A stretch of 36,440 nucleotides of DNA, taken from IMG/VR virus record IMGVR_UViG_2778261172_000005, positions 1 through 36,440 of that record. The stretch is one strand, 5' to 3'. The notes beneath the pieces were generated by a model. It saw nothing but the letters and a program-made list of their open reading frames with translations. It ran no database searches and was not told the origin of the DNA. The position numbers and the translations under genes were made by a program. Below, piece after piece: positions 8,269 through 32,269 of this stretch (the stretch's first letter is position 1; every line of letters starts with the position of its first letter). The DNA is from a virus. Its lineage: Duplodnaviria; Heunggongvirae; Uroviricota; Caudoviricetes.

Positions 8269-8330
8269 ATTTTCTGTTGTGCAGAGCATGAGACGCTATT
8301 TGACCTGGCTGGTCAGTGGATGAAACAACA
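8269..8330 (-). promoter_or_regulatory. Candidate Ogr-dependent late promoter P_F: TGTTGT-N12-CCA (8330-8310) plus -10-like GAAAAT (8274-8269)
   Basis: The element and its spacing recur upstream of O: TGTTGT-N12-CCA with GAAACT 55 nt downstream, versus 56 nt here. It resembles the known P2/P4 late-promoter dyad TGT-N12-ACA centred near -55. Confidence 0.45.
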
Positions 8331-8661: not shown

Positions 8662-9579
8662 TCACTCCATTTCTCTTTTGGCTAATTCTTCCCATTCGTC
8701 GATTGAGTTATTATAAGGAAATACCTCTTTAACTATGAAAGGAATGTAGCTTTCTTCAGCATTGTGATGTATTTCATTACTGATATTACTTGTGATTCCG
8801 AATTTTACGTCAGGATCGTTTTCAGAGAAATGTATATGAAAAGGTTGTTGACCTAAAGCCTGTCTAATTTTATTTGCTTGTTCTGATGGAAGGACTTTAA
8901 GTAGCTGTTTGAATGTTTTTTTATTAAAGTCTAGAGAAATGGCCATATCAATATCTCCGGGTATCATAGATATGCACGTGTATGACCGTTCGCTCAATCG
9001 ACTAATAAATTTAGTATTTATAGCAGGGGCACTAAAAGAACCATCTTTAACCAAACCCATTTTTCGAATATGAATTCCAAAATCAGGTGCATAACTCAAG
9101 ACATCCGGATTGGCTTTAATATCTGGATTTAATATCCTAAATAATTTTTCCCAGTAATTACCAATGTCTTTCAAAGAAAATCTGAGTATTGGGTGGAGTT
9201 CCCGTATACTATATAGAACAAATTCATTCCCATTGCACAATGCATACATTTCTGCCCTTATTTCTGGATGTATAGCATAACTATAGGCTTGCTCAACGTG
9301 CATGCTTTTGGTTATTTTTTCATTAGGGGCCTTTGCATCAAGAATCCAATATGGTCGGTCGTTAGAAAGAAAAACATAATCCGGTACTATTGAAATCTTT
9401 CTTGGCTGTGAACCTATTGAGACAAATGGATGTGTAAGCGTTTTGCTCCTGATTACACGACTATCTCCCGATGCTTTATAACCAAGAGCTTTAATAATTG
9501 GTAAAATCAACTCTTCTCTGACTGAATCCTCTTTAAATTCATCTGAGCTTAGTAAGTTAAAATCAAAATCATCAAACAT
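8662..9579 (-). CDS. PD-(D/E)xK nuclease-fold protein with an HsdR-N-terminal-like domain and an unassigned C-terminal half (305 aa)
   Basis: N-terminal pattern EELILPIIKALGYK...IVPDYVF...WILDAKAP...VEQAYSYA...ALCNGNEFVLYS fits the type I restriction R-subunit N-terminal (Mrr-like) nuclease fold, with D, D-A-K and Q signatures. The gene is AT-rich, has its own terminator and sits at the Z/fun position. I am confident it is coding and less sure of the family. Confidence 0.7.
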   Translation of the reverse strand: MFDDFDFNLLSSDEFKEDSVREELILPIIKALGYKASGDSRVIRSKTLTHPFVSIGSQPRKISIVPDYVFLSNDRPYWILDAKAPNEKITKSMHVEQAYSYAIHPEIRAEMYALCNGNEFVLYSIRELHPILRFSLKDIGNYWEKLFRILNPDIKANPDVLSYAPDFGIHIRKMGLVKDGSFSAPAINTKFISRLSERSYTCISMIPGDIDMAISLDFNKKTFKQLLKVLPSEQANKIRQALGQQPFHIHFSENDPDVKFGITSNISNEIHHNAEESYIPFIVKEVFPYNNSIDEWEELAKREME

Positions 9580-10130: not shown

Positions 10131-10859
10131 CTACAATTTAATTTTTAGTCTTTTAGGAGCATCGTATAGAGTAGATATTTTTATTTCGGCTTTACAACCC
10201 TTATCCTCAATTGCCAATGTGTATGCCTGCCTTAAGTTTTTTTCCATTCTTGGGTCAAATAGCACGGTGTCTAATAGTTCAACTGGATTAATTTCAAACT
10301 GGAAAATATCATTATCGACACTATTATCATCACCAGAATATATTAAACGAACTTCGCTTTCGTGTTCAAACTCCACGCGTTTGTATAAAAGCGATTCAGC
10401 AATGCCTGAGCCATTAGTGTTGAATAAATCAATTGACAAGAGTTTTTCCGAAAGAGTATCCTCCGGAAGATAAGAAACCTTGCCTATAAAACACCTTAAA
10501 TTATGGTAAGTCGGCTCTGCTTTTTGAAGTGCGGCTAATAGTTTTCTTGGTGTGGTTGAAACTCTTACACCATTTTTATCATGGGAATATATCCGCCACA
10601 TTGCATCGGTTTCACTATGAAATGTCCAGCATTGCCCATAAACAGAATCTCTTGCGGCAACTGTTCCTGTTTGACCATCAGAAGTTTCAATTACACAATT
10701 TAATAAAGCGTTCTCAAAAGGGTCATCCCATTTTCTTGGTTTTACTAAAGTTAATTTTTTTTCTTCAAGCAATTGAAGAAAACGGTGTATTGGCATAATT
10801 CTATAAATAGGTATATCCAATGATTCATCTGTTAAATTAATATAGTTATTATAGCTCAT
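10131..10859 (-). CDS. DUF2971-like protein (242 aa)
   Basis: The motif order matches my memory of DUF2971: IYRIMPIHRFLQLLEEKKLTLVKPRKWDDPFE, then GQCWTFHSETDAMWRIYSHDKNGVRV, then LLYKRVEFEHESEVRLIY. The gene is strongly AT-rich and sits at the Z/fun position. Confidence 0.65.
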   Translation of the reverse strand: MSYNNYINLTDESLDIPIYRIMPIHRFLQLLEEKKLTLVKPRKWDDPFENALLNCVIETSDGQTGTVAARDSVYGQCWTFHSETDAMWRIYSHDKNGVRVSTTPRKLLAALQKAEPTYHNLRCFIGKVSYLPEDTLSEKLLSIDLFNTNGSGIAESLLYKRVEFEHESEVRLIYSGDDNSVDNDIFQFEINPVELLDTVLFDPRMEKNLRQAYTLAIEDKGCKAEIKISTLYDAPKRLKIKL

Positions 10860-15438: not shown

Positions 15439-15786
15439 TCAACTCACAGGGATGGTTAATGAAAGTGGCTGGCCGGTGTCGTTGTGCTGGCCGGTTAACG
15501 TGACCGTCATTCGCCCGTCAAAACTGCGCTCAGTGGTGACGGATGACAGGGTGACGCGGGGTTCCCATTTCAGCACCGCCATGTAACAGGCGACCTTAAT
15601 CTGCAACTCAAGCGCCGGGGTCTGCGGCTGGTCAATCATTGATGCCAGCAACGAGCCGTAATCACGACGCATCACCCGTGAGCCGACCGGTGTGCGCAGG
15701 ATATCGCCGATACTCTGGCTGATATGCTCAAGGTCAGTGACAGTCAGGCCATCACTGCGATTCATTCCGAGATAACGCGCTGTCAT
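15439..15786 (-). CDS. W: Baseplate protein gpW (115 aa, GPW/gp25 family)
   Basis: P2-collinear, 115 aa. Confidence 0.9.
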   Translation of the reverse strand: MTARYLGMNRSDGLTVTDLEHISQSIGDILRTPVGSRVMRRDYGSLLASMIDQPQTPALELQIKVACYMAVLKWEPRVTLSSVTTERSFDGRMTVTLTGQHNDTGQPLSLTIPVS

Positions 15787-16418
15787 AAAGGACTCCCGGT
15801 TGTGCCGCCGCTGTCGCCGGGGTGTTTATGGGTATGCAGTACCTTACCGTTTGATGAGAGTTCACCGCCGGTGTGTTCAATGTTGCCGCGCATCGTCCCG
15901 CCCTTCTGCACTTCCAGCGTGCCGGTAATCAGCTTGTTGGTGCAGACCACCTCCGGTGTGTCCAGGGTGATGCGGGTTGACGCTTTCACCATGACCACCG
16001 GCACCGTGGCAGTAACAGAATCAGAAGCCGTCACGCTGGCCGTTTTAATTCCGCTTACCGTCAGTGAACTGGTTTCGGGTTCATACTCAATCACCGCCCC
16101 GTCAGGGAAACGGATATGCAGGGCATCCGCCGACGCAGACGGCGCGGGATTATCGCCGGAATAAATCCCCGGCAGAACAAACGCCGTGTCGAGTTCACCA
16201 CCCACGGCCAGAATCAGCACCTGTTCCCCCACGGAAGGTGCCCACCATGTGCGCGAACGCCCGGCGCGATGGGTCAGCCACTGAAGCCAGTCGGTGCACA
16301 TGCCGCCGGTCTGCACACGGCAGCGACCGGCGTTAAGGTCAGTTTCGACGATAATGCCGGTGCGAATCATGTTGCGCAGTGCGCGCGCGAGTTCCTGAAT
16401 ATTTGCGAGAGTGTTCAT
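15783..16418 (-). CDS. V: Baseplate hub/spike protein gpV (211 aa)
   Basis: The Met at 16418 (MNTLANIQELARALRNMIRTG...) gives the P2 size of 211 aa. The 223-aa track ORF is over-extended. There is no obvious SD upstream. Confidence 0.85.
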   Translation of the reverse strand: MNTLANIQELARALRNMIRTGIIVETDLNAGRCRVQTGGMCTDWLQWLTHRAGRSRTWWAPSVGEQVLILAVGGELDTAFVLPGIYSGDNPAPSASADALHIRFPDGAVIEYEPETSSLTVSGIKTASVTASDSVTATVPVVMVKASTRITLDTPEVVCTNKLITGTLEVQKGGTMRGNIEHTGGELSSNGKVLHTHKHPGDSGGTTGSPL

Positions 16419-16465
16419 AACGGGAAGGATGCCGCCGGACGATACCAGCAGCAATCATGGAGGAT

Positions 16466-16486
16466 TCTGTCAGCTGTGACACAACA
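16466..16486 (-). promoter_or_regulatory. Candidate late promoter P_V activator site TGTTGT-N12-AGA
   Basis: It has the same TGTTGT hexamer as the F and O elements. Using the F/O spacing puts the -10 at about 16431-16426 (CATCCT) and the transcription start essentially at the V ATG. Confidence 0.35.
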
Positions 16487-16495
16487 TAATAAATA

Positions 16496-17251
16496 TTAGT
16501 TGTAGCACTTCTCTATAATCTTCATACACTCCTCATGAGCTAAATCATGGCTGTCAAATTCTTTATTAAAAAAGAAGAAAAACGCCTTATTAACCTGAGG
16601 TATTTCAATAAAAATAAATTCATCAGCCTTATGAAAGAAATGAAAACTCTTGTTTGATGTTTCAAAAACCATCAAAGAATTATGTTTTTTATCCTTCCAT
16701 TTCGACATCAGATTGCTTCGCGATTTTCGTATAATCCTGAAGACATCCCCCGGCGTCGTATCGACATCCCCCCAAAACATTGCAACCGGGAAGTTTGCAA
16801 GAAAAGGGATATAATCACCCCCTTTATACCTGAGAAAGCGGGTCCGTAAATCCATTAATTGCAACTTAAAGCCCATGTATTGCAACCACCATATGATGCA
16901 ATCATATTCATAATCTGTTAACTCATCCCCCCTCTTTTCCGTAAGAAATTTCTTCAGGTTATACTCAAACACTCCCAGCAAATCAGAATTGCACACTCTG
17001 CATGCTGGTACAGTGACTTTAATGTAATGAGTTGACTGATTATTCTTTTTATTAATTAAAGATTTTTCAGCATTTGACTCAAAGGCCCACTGAGGAATAA
17101 TGTGCTCACGAGTAATATCGTCAGAGCTCCCGCATAACACACATATATCAGCATTATGGTCAGCAATAATACAATCCATAACTTTCTTTTGAGAATGCTT
17201 TACTCTTTTTCTCAAAATGGAAAACTTTTTATCCACAAACACCCGTCTCAT
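16496..17251 (-). CDS. HNH-type endonuclease-domain protein (251 aa) with an unassigned C-terminal two thirds
   Basis: Motif pattern CVLCGSSDDITREHIIPQW...THYIKVTVPACRVCNSDL, i.e. CxxC...EH..P...CxxCN. The gene is very AT-rich compared with its neighbours S and V. ATGA overlap with the S stop (17248-17251). It sits where P2 carries the non-essential orf30. Confidence 0.7.
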   Translation of the reverse strand: MRRVFVDKKFSILRKRVKHSQKKVMDCIIADHNADICVLCGSSDDITREHIIPQWAFESNAEKSLINKKNNQSTHYIKVTVPACRVCNSDLLGVFEYNLKKFLTEKRGDELTDYEYDCIIWWLQYMGFKLQLMDLRTRFLRYKGGDYIPFLANFPVAMFWGDVDTTPGDVFRIIRKSRSNLMSKWKDKKHNSLMVFETSNKSFHFFHKADEFIFIEIPQVNKAFFFFFNKEFDSHDLAHEECMKIIEKCYN

Positions 17252-17706
17252 ATAACATCTTTCGATAGAATCACTAATAACTCCCTTTCTATCAATTGTA
17301 TAGATTCCTTGTCAAAACCAAATAACTCACGAACAGGATATTCCACCACCGCACTATTACGCCCCGGCTTATCCCTAAGCCCTAATTGATGTACTCGCGC
17401 AATTCGTTGTACTCCGCTGGCAAACGCCACCACAGCCGCACTCTCGCTACCTGTTGCTTTCATAAACCGGTTAGTGCGTAATTTCACAAACATTTCCCGC
17501 TTTATCCGGCCTTTCTTATTTCGTACTGGTTGGTTTTTTCTCGGTACATACGGCGTACCATCCGGGGCTTTTTGTAATTTAATTCGCTGCTGCTGGCGCT
17601 GGCGCAGCTTCTTCGCAATATCTACCGCCAGTCTCCGACGCCCTGACGGTGACAGCGATTCAGTCAGTCCGGTCAGCCGGTCTTCAAAACGCTTAAACTC
17701 ATTCAT
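17248..17706 (-). CDS. S: Tail completion protein gpS (152 aa)
   Basis: P2-collinear and overlaps the R stop. Confidence 0.85.
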   Translation of the reverse strand: MNEFKRFEDRLTGLTESLSPSGRRRLAVDIAKKLRQRQQQRIKLQKAPDGTPYVPRKNQPVRNKKGRIKREMFVKLRTNRFMKATGSESAAVVAFASGVQRIARVHQLGLRDKPGRNSAVVEYPVRELFGFDKESIQLIERELLVILSKDVI

Positions 17707-20720: not shown

Positions 20721-21464
20721 TTAACTGGCTTTCTTTTTCGGGCGTCCACGTTTTGCCGGTGTCACGCTCCGTGTCTTACGCGGGGCGCGGGTGACCGCTT
20801 TTGGCTGCGGCTCCGGCTTCGGTTTCAGTTCCCGCTCCAGTCGTTCAATCTCTTTTTTGACGCCTGCCTGACAGTCGAGCTGTGTCGCACGTTGCAGGTG
20901 CGCCAGCGCACCGGTGGCATCACCAGCGTCACGCAGAAACAGACCGGTGATTTTGTGCAGCTTTGCGCGCACTTCATCAGGCATGTCAGCCGTGGCGGTC
21001 AGTTCAAGGGTCTCCGTCAGCAGGCGGGTATCCACAGACTCACCGGCAGCGTGAGCGCGCATGGCCGCAAGCGCCACCTCCTCGGTGAACATGTACGGCG
21101 GGGTACGGCGGTGTTTACCCGGCATGGTCAGACCGTACTTCAGGGCATAACGGGCAATCTCCAGCGCACCGGCAATATCGCCGATATCCAGACGCCACAG
21201 AATGACCGTCATCAGAATGTCATCCTGTGCGCCTTTGCCCTGCTCCAGCACGCCGTTCACCCACGGCAACCAGAACGGCAGCAGCTCGCGTTTTTTCGCG
21301 GCCTTCAGCTCTTTTGAATAAATCGCTTTCAGTGTGCGCTGGTCTGCGGCCAGCTTAACCAGCATCTGCTCATAGACAGTTGCATGTCGCAGCGGGGCGG
21401 CTTCCCGCTGCGCGGTTATCGCTGCCGAGACCCGCATCATGTGGCGCTGTGCGGGACTCGTCAT
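20721..21464 (-). CDS. M: Terminase small subunit gpM (247 aa)
   Basis: P2-collinear, 247 aa. Confidence 0.85.
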   Translation of the reverse strand: MTSPAQRHMMRVSAAITAQREAAPLRHATVYEQMLVKLAADQRTLKAIYSKELKAAKKRELLPFWLPWVNGVLEQGKGAQDDILMTVILWRLDIGDIAGALEIARYALKYGLTMPGKHRRTPPYMFTEEVALAAMRAHAAGESVDTRLLTETLELTATADMPDEVRAKLHKITGLFLRDAGDATGALAHLQRATQLDCQAGVKKEIERLERELKPKPEPQPKAVTRAPRKTRSVTPAKRGRPKKKAS

Positions 21465-23500: not shown

Positions 23501-23598
23501 AGTTTCCCGACGATACGCATCCTCCGCCATCAGTCCCGGATGGCTTATCACTGACACAACAGCACCTTAGCGAATCGCGGGGCGCGACTCAGTAGCCT
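23501..23598. promoter_or_regulatory. Divergent late promoter region P_O / P_P around a single dyad (23541-23561)
   Basis: On the minus strand: TGTTGT-N12-CCA, then GAAACT (23506-23501) 55 nt downstream. On the plus strand the same site reads TGG-N12-ACAACA, with a TAGCCT -10 candidate (23593-23598), then SD GAGG and the P ATG at 23628. Confidence 0.4.
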
Positions 23599-23627
23599 TG
23601 CCGTGTATTCATCACGGCGAGGTATTC

Positions 23628-25400
23628 ATGACCATCACCACAGACACCACTCTTTTGCACGACCCGCGTCGTCAGGCGGCGCTGCTGTACTGGCAGGGTT
23701 TTTCCGTGCCGCAGATTGCCGCCATGTTGCAGATGAAACGCCCGACGGTGCAGAGCTGGAAACAGCGCGACGACTGGGACAGCGTTGCCCCCATCAGCCG
23801 TGTCGAAATGAGTCTGGAAGCGCGGCTGACCCAGCTCATTATCAAACCACAGAAAACCGGCGGTGACTTCAAGGAAATTGACCTGCTGGGACGCCAGATT
23901 GAACGACTGGCACGGGTAAATCGCTACAGCCAGACCGGCAACGAGGCAGACCTTAATCCGAACGTCGCTAACCGCAACAAAGGCGGGCGGCGCAAACCGA
24001 AAAAGAATTTTTTCAGTGACGAGGCCATCGAAAAGCTGGAGCAGATTTTCTTTGAGCAGTCTTTCGACTATCAGTTGCACTGGTATCGCGCCGGGCTTGA
24101 GCACCGCATCCGCGATATCCTGAAATCCCGCCAGATTGGCGCGACGTTTTATTTTTCCCGCGAGGCGCTGCTGCGCGCCCTGAAAACCGGCCATAACCAG
24201 ATTTTTCTGTCGGCCAGTAAAACGCAGGCGTATGTGTTCCGTGAATACATCATCGCCTTTGCTCGTCTGGTTGACGTTGACCTGACCGGTGACCCGATTG
24301 TCCTGGGCAATAACGGCGCAAAACTGATTTTTCTCGGCACCAACTCCAACACCGCGCAGAGTCATAACGGCGACCTGTACGTCGATGAGATTTTCTGGAT
24401 CCCGAATTTTCAGGTACTGCGTAAGGTGGCATCAGGTATGGCCTCACAGAGTCACCTGCGCTCGACCTATTTCTCCACCCCGTCCACGCTGGCGCACGAC
24501 GCCTACCCGTTCTGGTCGGGTGAACTGTTTAACCGGGGACGCGCCAGCGCCGCCGAACGCGTGGAAATCGACGTCAGTCATAACGCCCTTGCCGGTGGGC
24601 TTCTCTGTGCGGACGGCCAGTGGCGACAGATTGTCACCATTGAGGACGCCCTGAAAGGCGGCTGCACGCTGTTCGACATTGAGCAGCTCAAACGCGAAAA
24701 CAGCGCCGACGATTTTAAAAACCTGTTCATGTGTGAATTTGTTGACGACAAGGCATCGGTGTTCCCGTTCGAGGAGCTGCAACGCTGCATGGTCGACACG
24801 CTGGAAGAATGGGAAGACTATGCGCCGTTTGCCGCCAATCCGTTCGGCTCCCGCCCGGTATGGATTGGTTACGACCCGTCACACCGTGGCGACAGCGCCG
24901 GATGCGTGGTACTGGCACCGCCGGTGGTGGCCGGTGGCAAATTCAGAATACTTGAGCGTCACCAGTGGAAAGGCATGGACTTTGCCACCCAGGCGGAATC
25001 CATCCGCAAACTCACCGAAAAATACAACGTCGAATACATCGGGATTGATGCCACCGGCCTCGGTGTCGGCGTGTTCCAGCTCGTGCGCTCGTTCTATCCC
25101 GCCGCGCGTGATATCCGCTACACGCCGGAAATGAAAACCGCAATGGTGCTCAAGGCAAAAGACGTTATCCGCCGTGGCTGTCTGGAATACGACGTCAGCG
25201 CCACCGACATCACCAGCTCGTTTATGGCTATCCGCAAGACCATGACCAGCAGCGGACGCAGCGCCACCTATGAGGCCAGCCGCAGCGAGGAAGCCAGCCA
25301 CGCCGACCTCGCCTGGGCGACCATGCACGCCCTGTTAAATGAGCCACTCACCGCCGGTATCAGCACCCCGCTGACATCCACCATTCTGGAGTTTTACTGA
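23628..25400 (+). CDS. P: Terminase large (ATPase/endonuclease) subunit gpP (590 aa)
   Basis: The Met at 23628 (MTITTDTTLLHDPRRQAALLYWQG...) has SD GAGG 5 nt upstream. The size is 590 aa as in P2. Confidence 0.9.
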   Translation: MTITTDTTLLHDPRRQAALLYWQGFSVPQIAAMLQMKRPTVQSWKQRDDWDSVAPISRVEMSLEARLTQLIIKPQKTGGDFKEIDLLGRQIERLARVNRYSQTGNEADLNPNVANRNKGGRRKPKKNFFSDEAIEKLEQIFFEQSFDYQLHWYRAGLEHRIRDILKSRQIGATFYFSREALLRALKTGHNQIFLSASKTQAYVFREYIIAFARLVDVDLTGDPIVLGNNGAKLIFLGTNSNTAQSHNGDLYVDEIFWIPNFQVLRKVASGMASQSHLRSTYFSTPSTLAHDAYPFWSGELFNRGRASAAERVEIDVSHNALAGGLLCADGQWRQIVTIEDALKGGCTLFDIEQLKRENSADDFKNLFMCEFVDDKASVFPFEELQRCMVDTLEEWEDYAPFAANPFGSRPVWIGYDPSHRGDSAGCVVLAPPVVAGGKFRILERHQWKGMDFATQAESIRKLTEKYNVEYIGIDATGLGVGVFQLVRSFYPAARDIRYTPEMKTAMVLKAKDVIRRGCLEYDVSATDITSSFMAIRKTMTSSGRSATYEASRSEEASHADLAWATMHALLNEPLTAGISTPLTSTILEFY

Positions 25401-26975: not shown

Positions 26976-27521
26976 ATGATAAATATTAATGAAGAAATTA
27001 ATAATTCTTTCGATGAGTTTGATGAGGAGGATAAACAGCAAGCTTACTTATCTTTCTTTAAAAATAGTTTCCCTTTTTTACTTTGCCCAACTCTATTCAA
27101 ACGCAGTGAAGATCTCCCTCAATTAAATTGGGTGAAAGTAAAATATACTGAGCATGCGGCTCATACTTTCCCAAATCAACAGGGAGTATATATGTTTATG
27201 GTTGGTTTCGAAAGCACTAAGCTCCCCAATAATTCATATGTTATGTATGTAGGAAAGGCCGGCGATACTAATTCCAACAACACAATCTGCAAAAGGTTTA
27301 AAGATTACGTTAATCCATCTGGATTTAGAGACAGGCCCAGAGTTAAGAAACTCATTCAGCATTTTAGTGAGCATTTATATTATTACTATGCAACACTCCC
27401 AACAGGGCAATCCACAGCAGATGTTGAATCCACTTTAGCCGATATTTTCGCACCACCTTGTTGTCAACGAGATTTTTCAGCTAATGTGCGAAGCTTATTG
27501 AGAGGAGTTAGAATTATATGA
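26976..27521 (+). CDS. GIY-YIG-like nuclease-domain protein with an acidic N-terminus (181 aa)
   Basis: QGVYMFMV-x11-SYVMYVGKAG...ICKRFKDY...YYYYATL...ADVESTLADIFAPP follows the GIY...YIG...R...E order of GIY-YIG catalytic cores. The gene is AT-rich. Its stop overlaps the next ATG (ATGA at 27518-27521). Confidence 0.6.
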   Translation: MININEEINNSFDEFDEEDKQQAYLSFFKNSFPFLLCPTLFKRSEDLPQLNWVKVKYTEHAAHTFPNQQGVYMFMVGFESTKLPNNSYVMYVGKAGDTNSNNTICKRFKDYVNPSGFRDRPRVKKLIQHFSEHLYYYYATLPTGQSTADVESTLADIFAPPCCQRDFSANVRSLLRGVRII

Positions 27522-28657
27522 ATCAACGTTTAGTCCTTCCATGTTTGAGAGGCTATATGGGGAGCTGGATTACATATAGTTGCATGATGAGACTTTCAGA
27601 TGCATCCAATTTGATCGGGTTTGCTGAGGAACTCCATCAAATTGATAAATTGTCAGACAAAATACAACGTGAATTAAATAATGATAGGGCTGAAGAAATC
27701 TCTCATTATTTGGTTAGCAATGATGATCGCTTCTTTAACTCATTAGTTGTAGCTGTTTATGATGGCGATCCAAATTGGCATGAAATTGGAGGAATAACTC
27801 CAAACAATGAAGAAGCCTCTTTGCTTGATTTTCCTGAGTATGCAGGGAATTGCATTGGTTTTTTATCCATTACAAGAGATGAAAAATTTTTTGCACTTGA
27901 TGGACAACATCGCTTAGCTGGCATCAAAGCTGCTCTTAAAGTTAATAGCGATATTGCTGATGATCTAATTAGCGTTATTATTGTTGCTCATGCTAATACG
28001 CCAGAAGGTAAAGTAAGATCCAGAAGATTATTTACCACTTTAAATAAAAAGGCAAAATTAGTTAGTAAAGATACCATTATAGCTTTAGATGAGGATGATA
28101 TAGCAGCATGCATAACAAGACGTCTAATTGAGGCAGAGGATTTCATATACTTCAATGAAGATAACGTATCCTTTAACTCTGGTCCTGTTAGAGATAAAAC
28201 GAGCATCACATCTATTGTTAATATATATGATAATGTTCAGAAGTTAGTAGCATATAAATTAGGTGTTAAAATTACCGAGTTGGAAAGATACAAGTATAAA
28301 GATCATATTGACATATACAACTTCATTTCTAATTTTTATAGCTACACATTCGAAGGATGTGAAGAGTTAATCAAAGTAGCTAAAGGTGAACAACCTGCTG
28401 GATTTTATAGAAATTCCGAAACTGGTGGGCATATTTTGTTTAGACCTATTGGTTGGGATTTATATACAGATATAGTACTCTATGCCATGACTCATTTTAA
28501 TCATGACCTTAAAAAGGCAATTCAACACATCACCAAACACAATCTAAACATGTCTGGCTCTATTCTATCCAACAAAGTTTGGTCAACAAAACAAAAGAAA
28601 ATCCTTAAGATAAGTGCTAAAAACATAAAAGCAATACAAAAAAGTTTGTTATCATAA
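27518..28657 (+). CDS. DGQHR-domain (DndB-like, ParB/Srx-fold) protein (379 aa)
   Basis: It carries the literal motif FALDGQHRLAGIK followed by RRLFTTLNKKAKLVS, the signature of the DGQHR/DndB family. The gene is AT-rich and translationally coupled to the upstream ORF. Confidence 0.75.
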   Translation: MNQRLVLPCLRGYMGSWITYSCMMRLSDASNLIGFAEELHQIDKLSDKIQRELNNDRAEEISHYLVSNDDRFFNSLVVAVYDGDPNWHEIGGITPNNEEASLLDFPEYAGNCIGFLSITRDEKFFALDGQHRLAGIKAALKVNSDIADDLISVIIVAHANTPEGKVRSRRLFTTLNKKAKLVSKDTIIALDEDDIAACITRRLIEAEDFIYFNEDNVSFNSGPVRDKTSITSIVNIYDNVQKLVAYKLGVKITELERYKYKDHIDIYNFISNFYSYTFEGCEELIKVAKGEQPAGFYRNSETGGHILFRPIGWDLYTDIVLYAMTHFNHDLKKAIQHITKHNLNMSGSILSNKVWSTKQKKILKISAKNIKAIQKSLLS

Positions 28658-28815: not shown

Positions 28816-28974
28816 TTATCCGGGCTTCACTTTTCGTCTCGTATATCCATACAGAATAAACGAGCCTCCGCTCTCATAATTACGGTGATTTTTAAGAAAC
28901 TCCGCGCGTTTCTTTCCTTCCAGCCCAAGGTCTAAATATTTTGTGTGCAGCTTTACCTCATGAATTTTTGCCAT
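28816..28974 (-). CDS. Small ASCH/DUF3850-like protein (52 aa), possibly truncated
   Basis: MAKIHEVKLHTKYLDLGLEGKKRAEFLKNHRNYESGGSFILYGY resembles the N-terminal two thirds of DUF3850/ASCH beta-barrel proteins. Its ATG shares a base with the A stop (TAATG at 28972-28976). Confidence 0.5.
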   Translation of the reverse strand: MAKIHEVKLHTKYLDLGLEGKKRAEFLKNHRNYESGGSFILYGYTRRKVKPG

Positions 28975-31265
28975 TATGTCCACTCCATTACAGCTGAGAA
29001 TCCCGGCCACTCATCAGCGACCGGATACGTGAATTTTTTCCCGTCATAATTTACTGTTGCCCCACGCGCCAGCGCCTCAAGCTCCCATCGCTGCGGCCTG
29101 ATACCGTTCTGAGCAAGGTCAACGCGGATACGGGTAATTTGCGTTCGTTCCGACCGGGTCAGTCTGGCCGATGGCGCTATTTCATGTGGTTTTAACGGGC
29201 TTCCGTTTCTCTGCTGACGATTTGGTGTTCTCAGTTCGTGTTTTAATGCACCTCTGAGCGCCCTCACGACCTCTGGCTCATTCCATTCGATAACACCGTC
29301 ATCAACCAGATTAAGCACTGCTGCGGCGTGCTCAGAAGGCGTGGGAGCCGGTGACGAAGTATCACCGTCGGTAAGCTTTCCACAGTTATTGACAGGACTC
29401 CGAGGCGCGGCGATGCCGCTTTTTAAAGTCAAAGGCTCAACGACCGGAACTTTCGGCACAATGCGCCAGTCCGTCGTTCTGGTGATATGAATATGACGCG
29501 CGCCGAGATGCGGCGCGTAAATGCCGACCACTCTCTCGACTTCTTCCTCATACTCGTTAACGTCATCCGACGGGCTACGGGCGACCCTGACAGTCTGACA
29601 ATCGCGCGGGACATTTGCCCCGCCCTGCGCGCTGATATACAGCGCAAAATCGCCACTGTCTGCGGCAGCGCGTGCAGCCTCGACGCGTTCGTCAAACTCA
29701 TCAGCAATGCTGACGCCGCGAGGCAACTTACGTAGTTCACGGTAAGCCCCCATTGTCGGCAGGCCAACCGTTTTAAATTGCGGGATGCGCCACGTTGACG
29801 CCCATGCGGTAACAGCCGCAGCAGTGTCTTTCAGCGGCCTGCCGGTATCGTTATCGAGCTGACCATCCAGTGCATAGCCGTCGATGTTTTTTGAAATGTA
29901 TTTCGCGATATATCCCGCAGCACCGCCCCGGTTAAGGTGTTTTGCCTGAAAACGGTTTCGCGCAGCTCCTCTTTCGTCGCCATCCTCTTTGAGCGCATAG
30001 CGACGCATGATTTCGATAATCTGGTTACGCTGGCGTGGATTACAAAAAAGCATCATATGCCAGTGCGGCGTTCCGTCGTGGTGTGGCTCGACGACTCGCA
30101 AACCGTAGACCTGTAAATCATTATCCTTGAATGCCGTGCGCATCAGGCTCCAGATACGGCAGAGATAACGCTGCGCATCCTTCGGATTAAATGCCTCATC
30201 ATTCCAGCCGTGATTAAGCTGGACGGTTTTACTTTCGCCTTTTCCGACCTGACGTGTCGGATGATACTTTGACGGCGCGGTCAGCGTGATAAACATCCCC
30301 ACATCACCCTCTGCGGCGGCGTAACGCTCAATACCGGCAATGGTGTTCATCAGCTCCATCCGGCGAATTTCAGGATTAGAAATACTGCCCATCACCTTAC
30401 TGATAAGGTCGATGCGTTCGCCGGTTTCCCTGTTTTCAAGGTCACACGATTTAAGAAATTCCAGATTTGCCTGACGGCGCGTACGCACATCACGAATAGC
30501 ATGTTTACTGGCATAAGGTGAACGGTCTTTATTGACCTCCCCGACAGCAATCAGTAACGCCTCATGCCAGCGCATACGCTGGCCTTTAAGCTGATGAGTC
30601 CACCACTCATCGTTAAACAGACGGGCAATGGCAGAATATGCCTGCCTCGTGGTCATCTGCCCTTTACGGTATTTTTTCCAGTAGAGAGGGGAAATATTGA
30701 AAGCTCGTGCAGCGCCAGCAACATGACCATACAGGTGAGCCTGCGCCTCATCCGTAAACAGCGATTCTTTCTCGCCATGCGCATCCACCCAGGCATCGCT
30801 GAGTTCCTCATACATCATGAAAAGCTGCGATGAGATACGGGCGGCAAATTTTTTCAGCTCCTTGTCATTCATTCCCGGCAGGCGTGCATACTGGTCGCGC
30901 TCTGCCAGAAACAGCAACGACGCGTCGGTGTTCATTTCATGGCGCTGATTCACGCGCTCAATGCGCGGCCATAAACGACGCTGAAAAGTGGATGTGAGGA
31001 AATAAAACCCGTGTAGCGGACTTTTATTGCGCCGGATGTAGTCATAGCGTGAAGTAAACAGCGAGCGCAAAAAGTAAGGCAGGCGGTTAATCGTGGATAA
31101 AACACCTTGCACCTGACGCATCTCGTCACGTGTAAGGGTTCTTTCGCGCCCGACGGCCTCGCGTGGCGCGTTCCATGCATAAGCACCGGTAAACGCCTTA
31201 CCGGTGCCTGCAGCAAATGCTGACGGAGGTACGCAGGTGTATTGCTCCTGGAAAGAATGACTCAT
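28974..31265 (-). CDS. A: Replication initiation endonuclease gpA (763 aa), rolling-circle HUH type
   Basis: It has the HUH-like motif EPHHDGTPHWHMMLF and the tyrosine motif GYIAKYISKNIDGY. It is P2-collinear; P2 A is about 761 aa. Confidence 0.9.
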   Translation of the reverse strand: MSHSFQEQYTCVPPSAFAAGTGKAFTGAYAWNAPREAVGRERTLTRDEMRQVQGVLSTINRLPYFLRSLFTSRYDYIRRNKSPLHGFYFLTSTFQRRLWPRIERVNQRHEMNTDASLLFLAERDQYARLPGMNDKELKKFAARISSQLFMMYEELSDAWVDAHGEKESLFTDEAQAHLYGHVAGAARAFNISPLYWKKYRKGQMTTRQAYSAIARLFNDEWWTHQLKGQRMRWHEALLIAVGEVNKDRSPYASKHAIRDVRTRRQANLEFLKSCDLENRETGERIDLISKVMGSISNPEIRRMELMNTIAGIERYAAAEGDVGMFITLTAPSKYHPTRQVGKGESKTVQLNHGWNDEAFNPKDAQRYLCRIWSLMRTAFKDNDLQVYGLRVVEPHHDGTPHWHMMLFCNPRQRNQIIEIMRRYALKEDGDERGAARNRFQAKHLNRGGAAGYIAKYISKNIDGYALDGQLDNDTGRPLKDTAAAVTAWASTWRIPQFKTVGLPTMGAYRELRKLPRGVSIADEFDERVEAARAAADSGDFALYISAQGGANVPRDCQTVRVARSPSDDVNEYEEEVERVVGIYAPHLGARHIHITRTTDWRIVPKVPVVEPLTLKSGIAAPRSPVNNCGKLTDGDTSSPAPTPSEHAAAVLNLVDDGVIEWNEPEVVRALRGALKHELRTPNRQQRNGSPLKPHEIAPSARLTRSERTQITRIRVDLAQNGIRPQRWELEALARGATVNYDGKKFTYPVADEWPGFSAVMEWT
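29389..29408 (-). other. Candidate ori / gpA nick site inside gene A
   Basis: The minus strand reads GCGCCTCGGAGTCCTGTCAA, which matches my uncertain recollection of the P2 A-protein cleavage region. It lies in the 3' part of A, where P2 ori maps. Confidence 0.4.
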
Positions 31266-32269
31266 TCACATACACCGGCATAGACACTACTGCAAACGGC
31301 TTTATCATTCGCCGAAGCCAGTAAATCAAACTGAGTACCCCCACGCGTTGTCATTGTCCAGTCATGGTAGGTTTCTATTCCGTATGCCTCGACTGTTACA
31401 ATCTCAATACGACGTTCTGCGCGTAGCGGATCATGTGTGGATGGGAAAAAAGTGGAATTTCCCCGACGGGAGCACGACGCAACCAGTCGTTCCCATTCAG
31501 CAACCCGTTTTATTTCCTCCGGCCACCGGCGAAAAATTTCTGCCAGTTCAGATTTACGGACATGAATACATGGCATACAACCAACACGGCCACACCCCTG
31601 CTGATATAACGGATTTGGCTTAATGTCATGTCTTCTGGCTATTGCAAATACATCTTCATGCTTCCAGTGCAAAATCGGGCGATATACATGCAATCCGGGG
31701 GTGTTGTCTGCATCCTCTTCCCAGACAGGTAAAGCAGCGCGTGATGGCGATTCCTGAGCACGCACTCCCTGCCAGCTAATCACTTCCTCAAATTCATTGA
31801 GTAAAGGCAATATTACCTGAGAACGCACGGGCTCATGTTTCAGTTCAAATGTGCAAAATCTGGCTTTGGTTGATGGGAAACGCCCCTTCCACAGACACAA
31901 ATCAAGAAACGGGATACCCGTTGGTTTGAGAATTTCCAGCGCACAACTGATGCGCTGGTGCGCTTCTTCTTCCGACATTCCACAATCGTTAACCAACAAA
32001 TCAGGCCATTTGGTCTGGATAAACTTGCGCTTTGATTCAATCCGGCAGGAAAAATCAGCTCTGACTCTTTTAATTGGGCCAAGCCGTTTTTCCAGATAAT
32101 CCAGATATTTCATTGTCTGTGGATGTTCATGTCCCGTATCAGCAAAAACCGGCAATATGGGTACATTTTCTTCAATAGCGACAAGCCACTGAGCAAGGCT
32201 GTCCTTTCCACCTGAAACAAAAATAACATTGATGGTATTTTCAGTATGGCAACGAGCATCAGTAATCAT
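31262..32269 (-). CDS. PP-loop ATP pyrophosphatase of the PAPS-reductase / DndC-like family (335 aa)
   Basis: It has the N-terminal PP-loop motif VIFVSGGKDS and a C-terminal cysteine cluster QQGCGRVGCMPC. ATGA overlaps join it to both the upstream ORF (32266-32269) and A (31262-31265). As I recall the P2 early operon, P2 has no such gene. Confidence 0.75.
   Translation of the reverse strand: MITDARCHTENTINVIFVSGGKDSLAQWLVAIEENVPILPVFADTGHEHPQTMKYLDYLEKRLGPIKRVRADFSCRIESKRKFIQTKWPDLLVNDCGMSEEEAHQRISCALEILKPTGIPFLDLCLWKGRFPSTKARFCTFELKHEPVRSQVILPLLNEFEEVISWQGVRAQESPSRAALPVWEEDADNTPGLHVYRPILHWKHEDVFAIARRHDIKPNPLYQQGCGRVGCMPCIHVRKSELAEIFRRWPEEIKRVAEWERLVASCSRRGNSTFFPSTHDPLRAERRIEIVTVEAYGIETYHDWTMTTRGGTQFDLLASANDKAVCSSVYAGVCE

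Follow-up and report, generated by a model that had tools for sequence, protein, structure and literature searches.

An AT-rich gene in the S-V junction of a P2-like prophage is predicted to encode an HNH_5-like His-Me finger protein with a conserved C-terminal domain

What does an AT-rich gene wedged between two tail genes of a P2-like prophage encode, when would it be expressed, and what might it do for the phage? The question is raised by an open reading frame (ORF) of 251 amino acids (aa), hereafter the HNH gene, that lies between genes S and V in IMG/VR record IMGVR_UViG_2778261172_000005. Positions 1 to 36,440 of that record (36,440 nucleotides (nt), the whole stretch analysed, hereafter the window) contain a P2-like prophage whose late genes lie on the minus strand. 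The G+C content (GC) of the ORF is 0.362, compared to 0.471 for S, 0.593 for V, 0.549 for R and 0.503 for the whole window, in agreement with an earlier note on this DNA, which had described the ORF as AT-richer than S and V. The GC of S is itself uneven: the stretch from approximately position 17640 to the stop codon, with a GC of 0.465, is an AT-richer, diverged allele and part of the same imported block as the ORF. Our analysis supports the assignment of the predicted product as an HNH_5-like His-Me finger protein, and the HNH nuclease is probably active. Coordinates of all features are collected in Table 1.

The motifs highlighted in the earlier note were found within the first 90 aa, with CVLCG at aa 37, ITREHIIPQW at aa 46 and VPACRVCNS at aa 81. 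In an alignment of the family reaching down to 25% identity, residues C37, C40, E49, H50, P53, W55, N70, C84, C87, N88, L92, W122 and K129 were invariant; for an HNN-type His-Me finger, these include the catalytic His, the Asn that binds metal and the four Cys ligands of zinc. An AlphaFold (AF2) model with a predicted template modelling score (pTM) of 0.82 contained a strand at 46-50, a strand at 80-84 and a helix at 85-105, with a predicted local distance difference test score (pLDDT) above 90. The catalytic His, which the note had proposed to verify by structural modelling, was in place: H50 ends the first strand and N88 lies in the first turn of the helix, both in regions of pLDDT above 90. 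N70 sits in a loop (61-73) that was modelled with low confidence.

A match to HNH_5 (PF14279), the family proposed for alignment, was obtained for the window protein only below threshold, at 16.1 bits against a gathering score of 27.5 (E = 0.011, aa 37-54). The alignment spans only the first 21 of the 56 profile positions, and approximately 30 residues are inserted between the two strands of the finger; the poor Pfam score is attributed to this insertion. All relatives of approximately 330 aa touched HNH_5, and one of them (P0134) passed its gathering score (30.8 vs. 27.5 bits). Profile-profile alignment (hhalign) joined the window family to these longer relatives with a probability of 99.7% (E = 8e-26, columns 39-228 of 270), and a deep profile search collected 34 clusters at E <= 1e-30 and 880 at E <= 1e-3. 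The family profile also aligned motif for motif, including the Cys pairs, with the HNH nicking enzyme of phage GVE2 (4h9d), at E = 0.12. The invariant residues, the modelled topology and the homology to relatives that touch or, in one case, pass HNH_5 together bear out the reading of the motif as a real His-Me/HNH signature.

Other searches added little to this assignment. Sequence-profile searches of the PDB gave nothing significant, NCBIfam returned zero matches for the window protein or ten relatives, and the Pfam scan of the window protein detected no NUMOD, IENR or helix-turn-helix (HTH) DNA-binding modules. Weak Pfam matches to Endonuclease_1 (E = 0.017) and JetD_C (E = 0.15) were treated as noise. 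Comparison of the window protein with the PADLOC v2.0 models gave no membership, the best score being to PDC-M01B (E = 0.041). The finger is followed by a C-terminal domain of approximately 150 aa, which is conserved across the family, including its solitary chromosomal members, and for which no match was found in PDB, BFVD, Pfam, NCBIfam or PADLOC.

How the gene would be expressed follows from its position relative to S. As the earlier note had observed, the upstream ATG of the ORF (17251-17249) overlaps the TGA stop of S (17250-17248), giving ATGA at 17248-17251. Orthologues begin at MDKKF, corresponding to codon 6 of the window ORF, which is GTG here (17236) and ATG in phage R18C; the overlap is thus a feature of the E. 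coli clade alone, to which the extra in-frame ATG is confined. In the carriers as a whole, 11-22 nt separate the S stop from the family start codon, and a good Shine-Dalgarno sequence is mostly missing. Since the start lies at or just past the S stop, translational coupling to S, by overlap or by re-initiation, is plausible. A 77-aa antisense ORF at 17156-17389 (+) spans the S/HNH junction and is also present in contigs L090 and L091; it is probably a by-product of the AT-rich sequence.

Downstream, the TAA stop of the ORF (16498-16496) is followed by TGTTGTGTCA at 16486-16477. The late-promoter element of V (PV) reported earlier is thus present, at a distance of 9 nt and not 10. There are exactly three copies of the degenerate form of this element, TGTTGTKTCA, in the 36-kb window, all on the late strand and upstream of FI, V and O. 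As 0.24 copies were expected, none of 100 shuffles reached three, and all copies precede late operons, the 10-mer marks late promoters. The shorter TGTTGT...ACA pattern was at chance level in the window, and a late-promoter dyad of the form TGT-N12-ACA was not found at that spacing; the empirically shared 10-mer was used instead. The P promoter, on the opposite strand, has no exact copy of it. A TTG-extended version of the V ORF, listed to 16454, was discarded as an artefact, V starting at the ATG at 16418.

Signals of the gene's own were not detected. A consensus scan upstream of the ORF, on its strand, gave no sigma-70-like promoter above shuffle level (5 promoter-like sites vs. 3.5 +/- 1.7 in shuffles), and the suggestion that the gene could also be served by "any internal promoter" was not borne out. 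By eye, TTGACA-N18-TAGAAA stood out in the 3' end of S, and was rejected as a conserved promoter: the T at -7 is missing, and the sequence arises from FDK codons and is unconserved in other carriers. The terminator scan returned none on either side of the ORF, including between S and the ORF. The HNH gene of all P2-type carriers examined is co-oriented with S and starts 0-22 nt past the S stop. The earlier placement of the ORF on the late transcript from the O promoter (PO) is upheld by this arrangement: same orientation as S, a start 0-22 nt past it, no terminator between the two and a position upstream of PV. Because neither a promoter of its own nor a terminator on either side was found, we read the gene as the final cistron of the PO late unit (O...R-S-HNH), and its late expression is likely.

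The gene itself is not new, as it is already on record as a hypothetical protein in R18C. The window protein matches phrog_10503 of the PHROGs database (unknown function) over its full length (E = 8e-178), and shares its sequence with a cluster of 547 database entries, every one of which is named "hypothetical". Of 5426 complete E. coli genomes, 77 carry the gene, and a tblastn search of 50,697 phage records (1e-5) found it in Bacteriophage R18C alone. R18C ORF16 (YP_009883387, HYP91_gp15) is the same gene, with 95.6% aa identity, in the same S-V slot and on the same strand; having ATG at codon 6, it is annotated from there as a protein of 246 aa, compared to 251 aa for the window ORF. It was published in 2019 as a 741-bp hypothetical ORF replacing P2 orf30, for which PSI-BLAST and motif searches gave nothing (PMC6823313).

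P2 orf30 also occupies the S-V junction; it is AT-rich, non-essential and considered to have been gained by horizontal transfer (PMC3091744). The earlier note had left open whether the two are orthologous and had called for an alignment, which shows that they are not: BLASTP gave at best E = 0.09 over 16 residues. P2 Orf30 differs in having 261 aa of unrelated sequence encoded on the strand opposite to S and V, and it showed no HNH motif and no Pfam or PADLOC match. The points that are new here are the secure HNH assignment, the non-orthology with Orf30, the definition of a swapped block, the long-standing divergence of the gene in step with the tail module, the wide distribution of the family and the defence-type diversity of the S-V slot.

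That the S-V junction is a cargo slot, as the earlier note proposed, is correct and already established in the literature, in which the orf30 region is one of three moron regions of P2-like phages (PMC3091744, PMC6823313). Among 76 close P2-like viral contigs, the junction (16419-17247 in the window) was empty in 55, contained an orf30-type gene in 15, an HNH-type gene in two and other cargo in four. The 21 occupied slots contained at least six cargo types, among them proteins resembling small alarmone synthetases and AAA ATPases (Table 1). Four of the five cargo types other than the HNH gene (orf30-type, L160, L168 and L169) lie on the strand opposite to the tail genes; only that of L116 is co-oriented with them. 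The published surveys of defence hotspots consulted here cover the old/tin, Z/fun and tail-CI loci, and the S-V junction is not among them.

The HNH gene does not behave as fast-moving cargo within P2-like phages. The order R-S-HNH-V-W was conserved in 47 of the 50 IMG/VR contigs with a family member, the remaining three (L218-L220) having no R/S/V context. Across these 47 contigs, identity of the HNH protein fell from 97% down to 45%, in parallel with S (100-51%) and likewise with R and V, and in L189-L193 it exceeded that of the tail proteins (69% vs. 59% for S and 55% for R). The distance from the end of the HNH gene to the start of V was nearly constant, at approximately 81 nt. The Klebsiella orthologue is equally AT-rich, with a GC of 0.34-0.37 vs. 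approximately 0.6 in its flanks. The copies were intact in 45 of the 47 contigs, the other two being truncated or frameshifted (L211:5294-5752 and L214:5001-5609). The ratio of nonsynonymous to synonymous substitution rates (dN/dS) was 0.24 against R18C, synonymous sites being saturated in deeper pairs. The gene is evidently under purifying selection, and we take it to be an old resident that co-diverges with the tail module, not a fast-swapping moron.

Damaged copies were also seen elsewhere, in an E. coli genome (hit H44, NZ_CP149553) and in two truncated clusters (P0035, 170 aa; P0036, 181 aa). In some HNH carriers of Klebsiella and other hosts, a second AT-rich cargo lies between the HNH gene and V (Table 1); the proteins it encodes in L007 (216 aa) and L012 (347 aa) gave no Pfam or PADLOC match.

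Within E. coli, the HNH gene travels together with part of S. Over a block of 1231 nt, which takes in 85% of S, the HNH gene and sequence upstream of V, identity to P2 and L-413C drops to 0-70%, compared to approximately 97% in both flanks. The replaced sequence flanking the HNH gene amounts to 390 nt of S and approximately 70 nt upstream of V. From residue 27 on, the window S is closer to the S of HNH-carrying Klebsiella and soil prophages than to that of P2; no other phage record has this allele, the nearest being 60-70% identical. In E. coli genomes the S allele and the HNH gene are nearly fully linked (79 vs. 77 genomes), and the block has identical length in the window and in both HNH-type survey contigs (L090 and L091). 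Both the linkage and the fixed boundaries are explained by where homology resumes. Contig L168 has a window-like 5' part of S beside a different cargo. The mean distance within the block was 0.021, compared to a backbone median of 0.028; as the block is as diverse as the backbone, a recent sweep is not indicated. A comparison of block and backbone distances for congruence was uninformative, because even the two backbone flanks were uncorrelated. Recent acquisition, as implied by the earlier description of cargo, therefore applies in part: a 1231-nt block was swapped into this E. coli backbone, and the gene after S is an old, co-diverging resident of Peduoviridae.

The family extends well beyond phages. 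A scan of one genome per species gave 128 loci; the best 80 of these, with 30-43% identity, were in Vibrionaceae, Shewanella, Halomonas, Desulfobulbaceae, many Bacteroidota and Gracilibacteria. Approximately 75 of the genome loci are solitary chromosomal genes without phage neighbours, and clustering of neighbours at 84 loci revealed no conserved partner outside the P2 tail genes. The 148 flanking proteins were mostly housekeeping, with three integrases, one portal protein and a handful of restriction-modification (RM), PDC-M02 or GajB-like proteins. GC of the family gene was more than 0.03 below that of its flanks in 52 of 69 non-phage loci, and higher in none. The longer relatives are likewise solitary; one of them lies in a cluster with a resolvase, an S1/P1 nuclease, Vsr, a C5-methylase and NOV_C; relative P0164 has weak similarity to PDC-M01B (E = 1e-5). 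Outside phages, the family is thus solitary, patchy across phyla and AT-biased.

Regarding function, we tentatively favour, with rather less than even confidence, an accessory conflict nuclease made in the late phase. The protein would be a stand-alone DNA endonuclease in which a zinc-stabilised HNH_5-type His-Me finger is fused to the family-specific C-terminal domain, and this domain presumably picks the target or gates the activity. Since the HNH gene of this sub-lineage of P2-like phages closes the PO unit and is predicted to be translated from a start at or just past the S stop, the protein would be made when the late genes fire, that is during lytic growth, induction or transactivation by a satellite. 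It would be an accessory and no part of the virion, and its job would be the cutting of DNA of rival genomes in the same cell during the late phase: co-infecting or superinfecting phages, satellites or P2-type genomes without the HNH allele. Several signs are of the conflict type, namely the sporadic occurrence (77 of 5426 E. coli genomes; 2 of 76 contigs), the solitary and AT-biased homologues outside phages and the defence candidates among the genes that fill the slot in other phages. The preference comes from weighing the explanations, the rivals being weakened by the late wiring, the slow turnover, the lack of a sweep and the dispensability of the gene. We infer nuclease activity, late-only expression and a conflict role from sequence.

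Several observations weigh against a late conflict nuclease. The window protein matches no PADLOC v2 model, its best score being that to PDC-M01B mentioned above, and the genes that flank the non-phage homologues are for the most part housekeeping, RM or defence genes being few among them. A means by which a nuclease made late would spare its own phage is not visible in the sequence. Transcription in the lysogen would be compatible with the null result of the consensus promoter scan, which is not proof of absence. Finally, a gene acting in the late development of its own phage could likewise co-diverge with the tail genes.

The alternative that survives best, unlikely as we consider it, is a defence or superinfection-exclusion function of the prophage like that of old, tin and fun(Z), in which the gene is expressed at a low level in the lysogen and the HNH domain degrades phage or host DNA (abortive infection) after sensing by the C-terminal domain. 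The location in one of the three moron regions of P2 (PMC3091744, PMC6823313) would suit this, as would the matches of other slot occupants to defence-candidate models. Chromosomal homologues that are solitary, patchy and AT-biased are typical of single-gene defence systems, and the similarity of P0164 to PDC-M01B, albeit weak, and the one remote relative in a mobile RM-type cluster point in the same direction. However, no promoter was detected; in every carrier the gene abuts S in the late operon, unlike four of the five other cargo types, which are on the opposite strand. The lack of a PADLOC family match and the mostly housekeeping character of non-phage neighbourhoods further weaken this explanation. 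Defence cargo of P2 hotspots turns over fast, whereas the HNH gene co-diverges with the tail module, and the gene is kept in R18C, which its authors called virulent (PMC6823313).

Somewhat less likely again is a free-standing HNH homing endonuclease, moving by intronless homing as do T4 Seg and Mob: late in mixed infections, it would cut the S-V region of HNH-negative P2-type genomes, and repair from the HNH-positive genome would copy the gene with its flanks. This explanation is favoured by the classification of HNH_5 in His-Me group 1, which also contains the homing enzymes T4 Mob and F-Lim (PMC5714182). An intergenic site between conserved structural genes and expression in the late operon would suit homing, presence and absence are polymorphic at one fixed site (55 of 76 empty, two of 76 HNH), and the allele formed by the replaced flanks is strongly diverged and would resist cutting. 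Against this, the C-terminal domain and indeed the whole protein are shared with solitary chromosomal genes of Bacteroidota, Vibrionaceae, Desulfobulbaceae and others; as these mostly lie next to housekeeping genes, recognition of a P2-specific site fits poorly. The family is not confined to phage, intron or intein contexts, and the NUMOD, IENR and HTH modules were not found. The sweep signature is missing (block 0.021 vs. backbone median 0.028), and the fixed block boundaries are trivially explained by resumption of homology.

We regard as improbable that the protein helps in the phage's own late DNA transactions, for example as a structure-specific or nicking nuclease in the debranching or trimming of replicated DNA, in the degradation of host DNA to yield nucleotides or in packaging, as HK97 gp74 or T4 endonuclease VII do. 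The gene belongs to the late operon and has diverged alongside R, S and V, at times being more conserved than these; it is under purifying selection, and the closest solved structure by sequence motif is the phage nicking HNH 4h9d. However, most viable P2-like phages lack it, P2, L-413C, 186 and WPhi among them, and it is therefore dispensable. The terminase genes M and P lie 3.5-8 kb away, and the family is mostly non-phage. P2 packages monomeric circles with its own terminase, which also argues against such a helper. A terminase-associated role of the HK97 gp74 type, one of the candidates in the earlier note, is unlikely because the gene is absent from most P2-like phages and does not adjoin the terminase genes.

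A catalytically dead or binding-only finger with a non-nuclease role (regulator or assembly factor), or a neutral passenger gene, is very improbable: the sub-threshold Pfam score (16.1 vs. 27.5 bits) and the low-confidence loop around N70 would allow a dead finger, but all catalytic residues and zinc ligands are invariant across the family, and a dN/dS of 0.24 with 45 of 47 copies intact argues against neutrality.

If the late conflict nuclease is correct, phages would arm their lytic programme too and not the lysogen alone, and a new nuclease architecture with a C-terminal domain of unknown function would join the catalogue of defence and counter-defence. Among the major reservoirs of immunity genes in E. 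coli are the P2-like prophages. A more far-reaching version, which we consider doubtful, holds that the family is a new single-protein nuclease family with a new C-terminal sensor or targeting fold, acting as a late weapon against rivals such as P4-like satellites and co-infecting phages, and that S-V is an overlooked conflict or defence hotspot of Peduoviridae beside old/tin and Z/fun. If the protein were instead a homing enzyme or a DNA-processing helper, this would explain the mosaic S allele in approximately 1.5% of E. coli genomes. For now the practical gain is modest and consists in the re-annotation of hypothetical entries, whichever explanation holds: approximately 550 identical entries and the R18C gene can be re-annotated as 'HNH_5-like His-Me finger nuclease, C-terminal domain of unknown function'.

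Elsewhere in the window, the other variable regions of the prophage are also occupied. The Z/fun region, between the tail-fibre genes and FI, contains an ORF at 10131-10859 (-) encoding 242 aa with a full-length match to the candidate defence protein PDC-S31 (E = 1.1e-94), and an ORF at 8662-9579 (-) encoding 305 aa with a weak type IIG-like N-terminal match (9e-6). In the old/tin (TO) region by the portal gene, the ORFs at 26976-27521 (+) and 27518-28657 (+) overlap by 4 nt; the latter is DndB-like (E = 2.8e-20) and the former gave no PADLOC match, and the two may form a two-gene defence unit. A 335-aa ORF at 31262-32269 (-) overlaps by 4 nt the start of a 763-aa ORF (28974-31265), which from its size and position is taken to be the P2 A-like replication gene. 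The 335-aa ORF matched models of the 3'-phosphoadenosine-5'-phosphosulfate (PAPS) reductase type (SspD 2.7e-21, BrxP 8e-13, DndC 1e-7), and lies in the early operon and not in a cargo slot.

Table 1. Features of the S-V region of the window and of related contigs. Positions refer to the window unless a contig is named.
Feature	Positions	Strand	Remarks
HNH-family ORF (phrog_10503)	16496-17251	-	251 aa; identical to cluster P0001, 95.6% to R18C ORF16
N-terminal His-Me (HNN-type HNH) finger, aa 33-105	16937-17155	-	Cys4 C37/C40/C84/C87; E49-H50, N70, N88
Conserved C-terminal domain, ~146 aa	16499-16936	-	Helices, 4-stranded sheet, terminal helix; W122 and K129 invariant
ATGA, overlap of upstream ATG of ORF and S stop	17248-17251	-	E. 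coli clade only
GTG at codon 6, alternative initiation codon	17234-17236	-	Family-consensus start position (MDKKF); 11 nt past S stop
gpS tail-completion gene	17248-17706	-	PF05069, E = 3.7e-29; from ~17640 to stop diverged allele
gpV baseplate spike gene (Phage_base_V + Phage_spike)	15783-16418	-	Real ATG start 16418
TGTTGTGTCA, late-promoter (PV) signature	16477-16486	-	10-mer common to regions upstream of O and FI
TGTTGTKTCA copy, FI	8321-8330	-	
TGTTGTKTCA copy, V	16477-16486	-	
TGTTGTKTCA copy, O	23552-23561	-	
Recombination module	16410-17640	-	1231 nt; 85% of S + HNH gene + V upstream region
M-like gene	20721-21464		
P-like gene	23598-25400		
L169 cargo	L169:2279-3379	-	Small-alarmone-synthetase-like (RelQ-like): RelA_SpoT 1.9e-21, PDC-S33 1e-16, PDB 2be3 1e-15
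L168 cargo	L168:2150-3394	-	AAA ATPase, PDC-S59 1.5e-31
L116 cargo	L116:1910-3436	+	AAA protein, near-threshold TIR_2 match (27.6 bits vs. cutoff 28)
L160 cargo	L160:2674-3417	-	247-aa protein of unknown type
Second cargo	L007-L009:6926-7576	-	216 aa, opposite strand
Second cargo	L012:7785-8828	+	347 aa, same strand as HNH gene
Extra sequence between HNH gene and V	L204-L207		~1 kb

Compared with known systems, the window protein has the CxxCG...(E/D)H...P and VPACxxCN(N/S) motifs in common with HNH_5, His-Me finger groups 1 and 8 and 4h9d, and the Cys4 zinc site and beta-beta-alpha-metal topology with HNH_5-type families and 4h9d. It differs from the HNH_5-type families by the insertion of approximately 30 residues and by the conserved 150-aa C-terminal domain, which those families lack. 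Like T4 MobA-E and I-HmuI, the gene is a small stand-alone HNH gene between phage genes, sporadic and probably transcribed with its neighbours; in contrast to these, its product has no known DNA-binding modules of homing endonuclease genes, it shows no sweep signature, and its homologues are mostly chromosomal and spread over several phyla. With the P2 exclusion genes old, tin and fun(Z) and the P2 hotspot systems (Rousset 2022, Vassallo 2022) it shares the character of AT-rich accessory cargo in a variable region. The HNH gene differs from them in occupying another locus, where, embedded in the late operon without signals of its own, it is old and co-diverges with its neighbours.

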